Positions 6,853 to 47,437 of a stretch of 64,000 bases of DNA are shown piece by piece (position 1 is the first letter of the stretch; each line of letters starts with the position of its first letter). The notes beneath the pieces were generated by a model, which did not search any database, was not told the DNA's origin, and saw only the letters and a list, made by a program, of their open reading frames with translations. The DNA is taken from assembly GCF_003018255.1 (NCBI RefSeq), contig NZ_CP027440.1, one strand, 5' to 3'. The position numbers were made by a program, and so were the translations under genes. This DNA comes from Escherichia coli (lineage in GTDB: Bacteria; Pseudomonadota; Gammaproteobacteria; Enterobacterales; Enterobacteriaceae).

Positions 6853-6985
6853 TTTGCTCCTGCCATAACGTGAAGAAGCAATGACCTGGTGGTCCGTGAC
6901 TTCCCTACGCTGGCATTATCCAGATCAGGTGATACGGGTATTTCTCAGCCTTCACAAAGAAGGGCACCCCGAGTCGTTTGGTTGC
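6853..6985 (-). promoter_or_regulatory. TPP (THI-box) riboswitch in the thiM leader
   Basis: Minus-strand sequence contains CTGAGAAATACCCGTATCACCTGATCTGGATAATGCCAGCGTAGGGAAGTCACGG, which matches the classical E. coli thiM TPP aptamer, immediately 5' of thiM. Confidence 0.85.
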
Positions 6986-25516: not shown

Positions 25517-25870
25517 ATGATCGTGCAAAAAGAGCTGGTTGCTATTTACGATTATGAGGTCCCTGTACCTGAAGATCCGTTTTCCTTCAGACTTGAGATC
25601 CATAAATGCTCTGAATTATTTACAGGTTCCGTCTATCGACTGGAGCGATTCCGGCTACGTCCAACATTTCATCAACGTGATCGAGAAGATGCTGACCCGC
25701 TAATAAATGATGCGTTGATTTATATAAGAGATGAGTGTATTGATGAGCGGAAATTACGAGGTGAATCACCTGAAACTGTAATAGCAATTTTTAATCGTAA
25801 ACTACAGAATATATTCAACCAACTAATAGAATATTACTTTATTAAAGGGGGAAGCGGTTTTCCCCCTTAG
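25517..25870 (+). CDS. yehK: Small uncharacterised protein
   Basis: 117-aa ORF on the track; true start uncertain (I recall the K-12 product as shorter); stop codon lies inside the hairpin that begins the first zor repeat. Confidence 0.5.
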   Translation: MIVQKELVAIYDYEVPVPEDPFSFRLEIHKCSELFTGSVYRLERFRLRPTFHQRDREDADPLINDALIYIRDECIDERKLRGESPETVIAIFNRKLQNIFNQLIEYYFIKGGSGFPP

Positions 25871-25889
25871 TTGCGTTTCAATTTGCCCA

Positions 25890-25979
25890 TTACTTCAACA
25901 AATCAATCAACCGTAACAGAGCCACTAATAGCTCCAGTACAGCAATGAGCACGGTTAACTTTTGTGTCAGCGTGTCCAT
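25890..25979 (-). CDS. zorO: Type I toxin small hydrophobic peptide, 29 aa (ZorO-like)
   Basis: Minus-strand ATG..TAA encodes MDTLTQKLTVLIAVLELLVALLRLIDLLK; AAGGAG SD 5 nt upstream; long 5' UTR; flanking hairpin terminator; too short for the ORF track. Confidence 0.7.
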   Translation of the reverse strand: MDTLTQKLTVLIAVLELLVALLRLIDLLK

Positions 25980-26217
25980 CCGCTCTCCTTATTAAGGAGC
26001 GCAACACCAGCACCTTACCCTTACACTGCCTGTCGACACTGGTTTACGTTTGTTGAGTCGCCATGTTGCACTCCGGATCAGAGCACTACCTGCGGCACCA
26101 CCCGTCCGGTAGCCAGGACTTGAAATGGGTTCGATCCGGCGCAACTTCCCAACAGTCAGGATTATAAATCTCATTATCTTAATTGCAACACGGTCCAGCG
26201 GTGGTTATAATTCGTTC

Positions 26218-26300
26218 GTTGAGATGCCATGTTGCACTATCAGTAACTTAACATCAAAGTAGTAAATAAAAGAACCTGCCTCACCAGCAGGTTCTTTTAT
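26218..26300 (+). ncRNA. orzO: Divergent antitoxin sRNA (OrzO-like), about 80 nt
   Basis: Consensus-like promoter TTGCAA-17-TATAAT (26183..26211), then a transcript ending at hairpin gaacctgc-ctcaccagc-gcaggttc plus T-run; 5' end gttgagatgccatgttgcact is complementary to the toxin 5' UTR (26053..26073). Confidence 0.6.
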
Positions 26301-26497
26301 TTTCTGCGATCTACTTTCCAGATATTTTTCGCCAATAGCCCACCATAAATATTCACATCCCGGCCAAATAGTACGTTGATTATAAAATCGATGAATTTAT
26401 AAATAAAAATGAGTTATATGATGAATTAATAAAAACAGTAATCATTTTATTAAAGGGGGAAACGGTATTCCCCCTTAGATGCGTTTCAATTTGCCCG

Positions 26498-26587
26498 TTA
26501 CTTCAACAAATCAATCAACCGTAACAGAGCCACTAATAGCTCCAGTACAGCAATGAGCACGGTTAACTTTTGTGTCAGCGTGTCCAT
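26498..26587 (-). CDS. zorP: Type I toxin small hydrophobic peptide, 29 aa, second copy (ZorP-like)
   Basis: Coding sequence identical to copy 1 (same 29-aa peptide), same SD and terminator hairpin. Confidence 0.7.
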   Translation of the reverse strand: MDTLTQKLTVLIAVLELLVALLRLIDLLK

Positions 26588-26825
26588 CCGCTCTCCTTAT
26601 TAAGGAGCGCAACACCAGCACCTTACCCTTACACTGCCTGTCGATACTGGTTTACGTATGTTGGTACGAAACGTTGCTCTCCGGATCAGGGCACCGCCTG
26701 CGGCACCACCCGTCCAGCAGCCAGGACTTAAAATTGGTCCGATCCGGCACAACCTCCCAACGGGCAGGATTATAAATCTCATTCACTGAATTGCAATGGA
26801 GTGTGGATATGGTTATAATTTATTC

Positions 26826-26908
26826 GTTGGTACGAAATGTTGCACAATCAGCAAGTTAGCGTCATTGTAGTAAATAAAAGAACCTGCCTCACCAGCAGGT
26901 TTTTTTAT
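26826..26908 (+). ncRNA. orzP: Divergent antitoxin sRNA, second copy (OrzP-like)
   Basis: Promoter TTGCAA-17-TATAAT (26791..26819); 5' segment gttggtacgaaatgttgcaca is complementary to the copy-2 toxin UTR (26661..26681); same terminator hairpin. Confidence 0.6.
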
Positions 26909-47264: not shown

Positions 47265-47437
47265 GATGAGCATTCAGATAGTGGTTCACGCGCACGGGTT
47301 GCGCACCGCCGGAGTAAGGATTTACTGAGGCTAGCGACGCCATCATAACGAGCAAAAAGTGCGATCGTCAAAGAAGAATCGTGAGGAAATGCTGCATTGC
47401 TGACATTTACGCCAGCAATGCAGCGCAAAAGAACTTT

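Follow-up and report, generated by a model that had tools for sequence, protein, structure and literature searches.

A common palindromic -35 hexamer between the divergent promoters of a tandem zor-orz toxin-antitoxin locus in Escherichia coli

The 64-kb stretch of Escherichia coli DNA analysed here (‘the window’) carries, between yehK and yehL, a tandem zor-orz type I toxin-antitoxin pair, and in both copies the promoters of the toxin mRNA and of the antitoxin sRNA face away from each other around a single self-complementary hexamer, TTGCAA, that is placed to act as -35 element in either direction. The feature is real, ordinary and already known, and its recognition amounts to a rediscovery of the published zor-orz locus; the only new content is the hypothesis that RNA polymerases at the two promoters exclude one another, which is modest and testable. 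We give about even odds (roughly 50%) to the reading that two sigma-70-type promoters share this -35, that their polymerases exclude each other and that the balance favours orz. It is a standing question what switches chromosomal type I toxins on, and such competition, if true, would add a simple transcriptional layer to a system explained so far by RNA pairing and processing; if the sharing is without effect, the finding is an accurate re-reading of a published promoter region.

The assignment to zor-orz follows from two Rfam OrzO-P matches, two ZorO reading frames, the yehI-yehK...yehL context and the likeness of copy 2 to O157:H7. Specifically, the family RF02083 (OrzO-P) matches 26225..26298 with 90.2 bits and 26833..26906 with 88.9 bits (gathering score 60), and the flanking reading frames are yehI, yehK and yehL by K-12 and O157:H7 records. 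As in zor-orz, the toxin frames are hydrophobic, 29 aa long and preceded by an AAGGAG ribosome binding site (25990..25985 in copy 1), and both encode the ZorO protein sequence, with residues D2, T3, E16, A20, R23 and D26 in agreement with the ZorO residues named previously (PMC9860968; PMC11264685). An sRNA diverges from each toxin gene and is complementary through its 5′ end to the toxin 5′ UTR, in the EAP region (+73..+102). Tandem toxins (z3289/z3290) with divergent sRNAs have been described at the yehK-yehL site (Fozo 2010, PMC2887945), and the toxicity of Zor and its repression by Orz have been shown experimentally for zorO-orzO of strain EDL933 (PMC3919570). Elsewhere in the window, Rfam places a TPP riboswitch at 6885..6981 (minus strand, 71.2 bits) and a Peptidase-S11 RNA motif at 47269..47349 (minus strand, 72.8 bits).

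The closest known system is thus zorO-orzO/zorP-orzP of O157:H7 EDL933 (Fozo 2010; Wen 2014, 2017; Shore 2024), which consists of the same genes at the same yehK-yehL site, with a 29-aa toxin, a 174-nt UTR, a divergent sRNA of about 82-85 nt and the same promoter hexamers and spacings. The window, in contrast, comes from another strain, which is not O157:H7. Its copy 2 unit is 98.6% identical to zorO-orzO of O157:H7 strain 86-24, and this O-type unit adjoins yehL in the window whereas it adjoins yehK in O157:H7. Copy 1 represents a third allele, with 87.6% identity to the O unit and 90.7% to the P unit; at an identity of at least 99% it was found in only 54 genome records among 5,426 genomes.

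Table 1. Features of the two zor-orz copies, in window coordinates.
Feature	Coordinates	Strand	Basis and remarks
zor toxin ORF, copy 1	25890..25979	-	29 aa, MDTLTQKLTVLIAVLELLVALLRLIDLLK; ORF list
zor 5′ UTR, copy 1	25980..26153	-	174 nt; RBS AAGGAG 25985..25990; Orz target 26052..26072 = +82..+102
zor promoter -10 hexamer, copy 1	26161..26166	-	TATAAT on minus strand; ends 8 nt upstream of published +1; invariant in 39/39 related modules
Common palindromic -35 hexamer TTGCAA, copy 1	26183..26188	.	Reading and scan; PMC11264685 Table 3; invariant in modules examined
orz promoter -10 hexamer TATAAT, copy 1	26206..26211	+	Reading and scan; ends 7 nt upstream of Orz +1
Orz antitoxin sRNA, copy 1	26218..26299	+	About 82 nt; 5′ end GUUGAGAUGCCAUGUUGCACU pairs with zor UTR
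zor toxin ORF, copy 2	26498..26587	-	29-aa protein identical to copy 1; ORF list
zor 5′ UTR, copy 2	26588..26761	-	174 nt; Orz target 26660..26680; register as copy 1, offset 608 bp
zor promoter -10 hexamer, copy 2	26769..26774	-	Consensus scan
Common palindromic -35 hexamer TTGCAA, copy 2	26791..26796	.	Consensus scan
orz promoter -10 hexamer, copy 2	26814..26819	+	Consensus scan
Orz antitoxin sRNA, copy 2	26826..26907	+	5′ end GUUGGUACGAAAUGUUGCAC identical to EDL933-type OrzO; oligo EF537 gives +1

Each Orz is predicted to pair best with its own zor UTR: the predicted energies are -37.6 and -34.0 kcal/mol for the cognate duplexes of copies 1 and 2, as compared with -23 to -29.5 kcal/mol where Orz and UTR are not cognate. 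The copy 1 duplex contains, near its centre, a single A-A mismatch and a single G-U pair. The fold of the copy 1 UTR is itself unremarkable (z = -0.46). The terminator hairpin of copy 1 Orz has its arms at 26266..26279 and 26287..26300, and the 3′ end of this sRNA was placed through homology to the K-12 Term-seq 3′ end at 2204485. A G5/C5 hairpin also stands directly downstream of each zor frame (25845..25868 and 26453..26476). In copy 1 a 117-aa yehK-like frame (25517..25870) reads through it, K-12 yehK being 105 aa long, and the hairpin at 25845..25868 may be a two-way terminator common to yehK and zor.

Published start sites anchor the promoters. Primer extension mapped the starts of both mRNAs and both sRNAs (Fozo 2010, PMC2887945), and the zor UTR is 174 nt long with its ribosome binding site at +164..+169 (Wen 2017, PMC5397157); counted from AAGGAG at 25990..25985 and the ATG at 25979, this UTR puts the zor +1 at G 26153, 8 nt past the minus-strand TATAAT. 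The first-pass annotation of this DNA had predicted a toxin start at about 26153 with a UTR of about 174 nt, exactly as the published length now gives it. For the sRNAs, the cloning oligos of Wen 2014 (PMC3919570 supplement) fuse the vector directly to GTTGG... for orzO and orzP (EF537 and EF541, which give the Orz +1), and to GTTGGGA for zorO (EF531, with which the zorO insert begins), so that the Orz +1 is G 26218 (26826 in copy 2), 7 nt past its TATAAT. The sizes agree as well: from its predicted +1 to the Term-seq 3′ end at 2204485, which falls in the U-run of the terminator, K-12 Orz measures about 84 nt, and the size of Orz on northern blots is about 85 nt (PMC2887945). The K-12 equivalents of the two starts are NC_000913.3 2204337 (minus strand, zor) and 2204402 (plus strand, orz); neither turned up in the available Cappable-seq, Kim 2012 and SMRT-Cappable-seq start-site tables, which may be truncated, so that this absence carries no weight. 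Since the published starts agree with the -10 boxes, we take the boxes to be real promoters; the same agreement bears out the annotation's assignment of one promoter to the toxin mRNA and the other to the antitoxin sRNA, and mapped starts, the check that it had proposed for the boxes, fit them exactly. The two start sites also form an inverted repeat, CAAC (26150..26153) ... GTTG (26218..26221), so that GUUG opens both transcripts, and a GUUGC motif is repeated at the zor 5′ end, in the Orz seed and across the -35 on the minus strand.

Between these starts, which lie 65 bp apart, direct reading and a consensus scan agree on the order ATTATA (26161..26166), 16 bp, TTGCAA (26183..26188), 17 bp, TATAAT (26206..26211), that is, two perfect TATAAT boxes 39 bp apart with a 16-bp spacer on the zor side and a 17-bp spacer on the orz side, each promoter matching the consensus at 10/12 positions. 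The hexamer is its own reverse complement, as had been noted along with the two distances, and the layout recurs identically at 26769..26819 in copy 2, as had also been claimed. TTGCAA is present only once between the two -10 boxes, which supports, together with a literature that names TTGCAA for both genes, the annotation's view that a single -35 can serve both. The best explanation of the interval 26153..26218 (repeated at 26761..26826) is that it forms the complete control region of one zor-orz module.

How far this layout exceeds chance depends on what is counted. A promoter scan of the 3-kb region gave 4 sites where 4.6 were expected, so that the number of promoter-like sites is not enriched; those 4 sites are exactly the zor and orz promoters of copies 1 and 2. 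The window contains two instances of the full 51-bp pattern, ATTATA-N16-TTGCAA-N17-TATAAT, and no more, and in 100 dinucleotide-preserving shuffles of the window, with up to 3 mismatches allowed, there were on average 0.03 matches per shuffle and in no shuffle (0/100) two. The improbable thing is the combined geometry, the single sites being not improbable. Both copies lie inside a 608-bp tandem duplication of which they are the two halves, so they are not independent and count as one event.

Much of this was already in print. Predicted -35 and -10 elements are boxed in Fig. 1A of Wen 2014 (PMC3919570), and Table 3 of Shore 2024 (PMC11264685) lists -35 TTGCAA and -10 TATAAT for both Zor and Orz, with -35 conservation figures that are identical for the two genes (99.4/99.4 and 99.7/99.7). 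As there is a single TTGCAA between the -10 boxes, the table must mean one hexamer, and the sharing is already implicit there. We found in the accessible zor-orz literature no statement that the hexamer is shared or palindromic or that polymerases exclude each other, and in the accessible literature no experiment that measures one promoter with the other disabled; a 2025 review raises promoter competition at divergent type I toxin-antitoxin loci in general terms only and describes zorO-orzO regulation as still to be deciphered.

The hexamer itself has properties that fit a double role. Enumeration puts the best possible match of a palindromic hexamer to TTGACA at 4/6 positions, and TTGCAA attains this maximum while keeping the TTG triad; any single substitution that raises one strand to 5/6 lowers the other to 3/6. 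TTGCAA is thus a balanced optimum, compensated by two perfect -10 boxes. In the O-type allele (copy 2) the palindrome extends imperfectly to 20 bp (26784..26803, CACTGAATTGCAATGGAGTG), and we considered this extension as a general operator; it occurs only in that allele and is not conserved, and was rejected, so that it is probably no conserved operator. Looking by eye for sites of known regulators in the 64 bp between the start sites, we found for CRP only TGTGA/TCACA halves in the wrong order or spacing, for CytR no proper pair of octamers and for Fis no match, and no other recognisable regulator site was seen there.

Conservation was examined in 39 related modules whose upstream sequence is complete and whose choice took no account of the hexamers; they come from a 271-bp BLAST of complete E. 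coli genomes, a toxin-peptide pattern in species-representative genomes and an Orz terminator 29-mer in metagenomes. The degenerate peptide pattern found only three Escherichia loci and one chance match, and misses alleles with A13T. The modules, which represent 14 distinct sequences, were drawn from E. coli, E. whittamii, two further Escherichia species and metagenomes, and 38 of the 39 read exactly ATTATA-N16-TTGCAA-N17-TATAAT. Variable columns number 0/18 in the hexamers as against 23/33 in the spacers (Fisher p from 1e-5 to 6e-7, values that are indicative only as the alleles are phylogenetically related), and across the 38 modules two alleles may be distinguished by as many as 15 of the 33 spacer positions, with no spacer indel. 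The contrast between strictly conserved hexamers and freely varying spacers is plain in these alignments. AATCTC beside the zor -10 (26167..26172) and TGGT before the orz -10 (26202..26205) are each nearly invariant, with one variant among the 14 alleles, while other spacer positions vary freely; neither motif makes an extended -10 of the TGn type.

Proof that the hexamer is required by both promoters cannot come from conservation alone, and the needs of the orz promoter could by themselves account for its invariance, which counts against competition. TTGCAA might accordingly be used by the orz promoter only, with zor independent of a -35 or reliant on other upstream contacts: the 16-bp zor spacer is the less favourable one, and transcription from a consensus -10 can proceed despite a poor -35. 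We regard this as quite improbable, given that TTGCAA at 16 bp is the best zor -35 candidate (a shift by one base drops the match to 3/6), that the distance on the zor side is constant in the 38 modules, and that TTGCAA is labelled as the zor -35 by the group that mapped the start (PMC11264685). The one exceptional module also bears on the question. On metagenome contig OBVG01003148.1 (L019, 337-409) a 20-bp insertion, TGTGTAAGTTCACAGAGATA, which the sister allele L021 lacks, lies directly beside TTGCAA; orz retains TTGCAA at 17 bp, while the zor -10 now faces TACACA, a 4/6 match of a quality that a random hexamer reaches about 4% of the time, at exactly 16 bp. This hints that zor may need a -35 at the 16-bp distance, and shows that sharing is not obligatory, although a single contig gives either point little weight. 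The inserted sequence looks like part of the zor spacer copied in inverse orientation (ATCTC..GTGAA / TTCAC.GAGAT), and the Zor protein encoded there carries K7R and A13T.

The geometry leads us to favour competition between the promoters. The sigma-70 holoenzyme contacts the -35 major groove through sigma region 4.2 and leaves a DNase footprint from about -55 to +20. On these established sizes, the canonical footprints of the two oppositely oriented promoters, placed by their mapped starts, would overlap by about 46 bp (26163..26208). Mutually exclusive occupancy by RNA polymerase would follow from this geometry as a sound steric expectation, because the hexamer is the same for both and the starts are only 65 bp apart: sigma region 4 of two holoenzymes could not occupy one hexamer together, and a polymerase binding or melting one promoter would block its neighbour until it escapes. 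The competition is probably biased towards orz, judged by consensus rules on spacer length and upstream A+T, on which this direction rests. The orz promoter would be favoured by its optimal 17-bp spacer and an upstream region (-38..-59) of 77% A+T, formed by the zor -10 and spacer, and zor would be disfavoured by its 16-bp spacer and by an upstream region of 50% A+T whose portion closest to the -35 is 82% G+C. Each firing of the antitoxin promoter would then make Orz and partly occlude the toxin promoter, a transcriptional bias on top of the Orz/RNase III and 5′-UTR controls. The analysis establishes what the locus is, its hexamers and spacings, their agreement with published starts and their conservation; that both promoters need TTGCAA is inferred, as is the exclusion, together with which way it works and how strongly. 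As interference scales with promoter occupancy, the effect may lie well under two-fold if escape is fast.

Several considerations weigh against such competition. The -35 may matter little to either promoter where the -10 boxes are perfect, and negative supercoiling from divergent transcription could stimulate instead. In the latter case the coupling would be positive, the negative supercoils behind each polymerase helping the other promoter to open so that the transcripts rise and fall together; such topological coupling is on record at Pr/Po and leu-500, and ilvY/ilvC and fepA/fes have been examined for it (PMC5175336), and the directions stimulate each other at bidirectional promoters that share a -10. 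Here Orz, at about 82 nt, and the zor mRNA, which we put at about 300 nt by taking it from +1 up to the hairpin that follows the ORF, are both very short, and RNAs that are short and poorly anchored make little supercoiling; moreover, the Pr/Po effect was not seen in E. coli (PMC5175336), melting is unlikely to be the limiting step at perfect TATAAT boxes, and a steric clash at the -35 would remain. We therefore leave this coupling only a slight probability.

A weightier objection is that both promoters use the hexamer to no consequence, the sharing being a by-product of a compact, duplicable 608-bp module whose promoters fire independently at low occupancy, while all meaningful control is post-transcriptional, through Orz pairing, RNase III and 5′-UTR processing. 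Taken as a whole this is somewhat unlikely in our judgement. All zor-orz regulation published so far is post-transcriptional (PMC3919570; PMC5397157), the module duplicates as a unit, no regulator site is recognisable between the starts, and both the L019 allele, in which the insertion separates the -35 positions, and the homologous K-12 locus shoB-ohsC manage with separate -35 sites, two facts that also speak against competition. Set against a mere by-product are the constancy of both spacings and all three hexamers while the spacer sequences diverge, and the abundance of Orz in exponential phase (PMC2887945), which suggests a promoter occupied to a more than negligible extent. A more far-reaching version of competition would make the common -35 a regulator-free transcriptional toggle, with toxin and antitoxin initiation anticorrelated in single cells; when Orz declines in stationary phase, orz promoter activity would fall and the toxin promoter be released simultaneously. 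If true, transcription itself would act as a switch and make single cells differ from each other, something not yet described for type I toxin-antitoxin systems, and the L019 insertion allele would be a natural uncoupled control, but we consider this toggle distinctly unlikely.

Among other divergent type I loci, shoB-ohsC resembles zor-orz in its divergent toxin mRNA and sRNA, in the pairing of the sRNA 5′ end to the toxin UTR and in the length of that UTR (about 180 nt, estimated from a predicted promoter). In a Smith-Waterman shuffle test of window 25885..26300 against K-12 shoB-ohsC (L014:1113-1599), the zor mRNA could be aligned with that of shoB in collinear fashion, through the UTR and on into the ORF, with a score of 58 against a shuffle mean of 21.6 (z = 11; reached by 0/500 shuffles), and Orz and OhsC align with z = 4.6, having in common GTTGAG..GCATG.TGCAC and the terminator; BLASTN of shoB-ohsC against the window gave nothing significant. 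On these alignments the two look like homologous loci, which the accessible papers call only ‘reminiscent’ of each other. In contrast to zor-orz, shoB and ohsC have no promoter element in common, their separate -35 hexamers, GTGACC (shoB) and TTGTAA (ohsC), being about 70 bp apart; the distance from one start to the other is about 143 bp and includes CpxR sites. The K-12 tisAB/istR locus (istR-1, istR-2) is likewise a divergent type I pair with short complementarity, and its toxin and istR-2 promoters stand back to back, whereas IstR-1 has its own promoter further away. The element common to tisAB and istR-2 is reportedly a LexA operator and not a -35. With separate -35 boxes in the one and a LexA box instead in the other, a shared -35 is peculiar to zor-orz among the divergent type I loci compared (shoB-ohsC and tisAB-istR).

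Outside type I loci, exclusion between neighbouring divergent promoters has precedents. At lambda PR/PRM, whose starts are about 82 bp apart, polymerase at one promoter hinders binding or opening at the other. Similarly, at an overlapping divergent promoter, RNA polymerase can exclude polymerase next door, as at aroP P1/P3, a case cited in PMC3167631. In both systems each promoter has a -35 hexamer of its own, and TyrR or CI/Cro does the steering, whereas a zor-orz regulator is not evident. Conversely, the bidirectional promoters with -10 symmetry (Warman, Forrest, Wade, Grainger) resemble zor-orz in having a symmetric core element read on both strands; there, however, the -10 is common, the starts lie 7-29 bp apart (mode 18) and the directions stimulate each other, whereas in zor-orz the -35 is common and the -10 boxes are separate. 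With starts 65 bp and -10 boxes 39 bp apart, zor-orz falls outside that class, and, if competition holds, it would stand beside the class as a clean natural bidirectional promoter that shares its -35.

Two strains carry reduced forms of the module. K-12 MG1655 (L002:780-1000; NC_000913.3 2204279-2204499) is orz-only and keeps the whole bidirectional module and about 30 nt of the zor UTR, the toxin being gone; judged by its sequence, the zor promoter left behind would direct antisense transcription into yehK at its 3′ end. K-12 Term-seq 3′ ends are at 2204446 and 2204485 (plus strand). In E. coli S1-INA-02-A (L009, NZ_CP145663.1), an IS1A replaces everything from inside the orz spacer through yehR, and the remnant consists of a zor UTR stub, the zor -10 and the -35 only.
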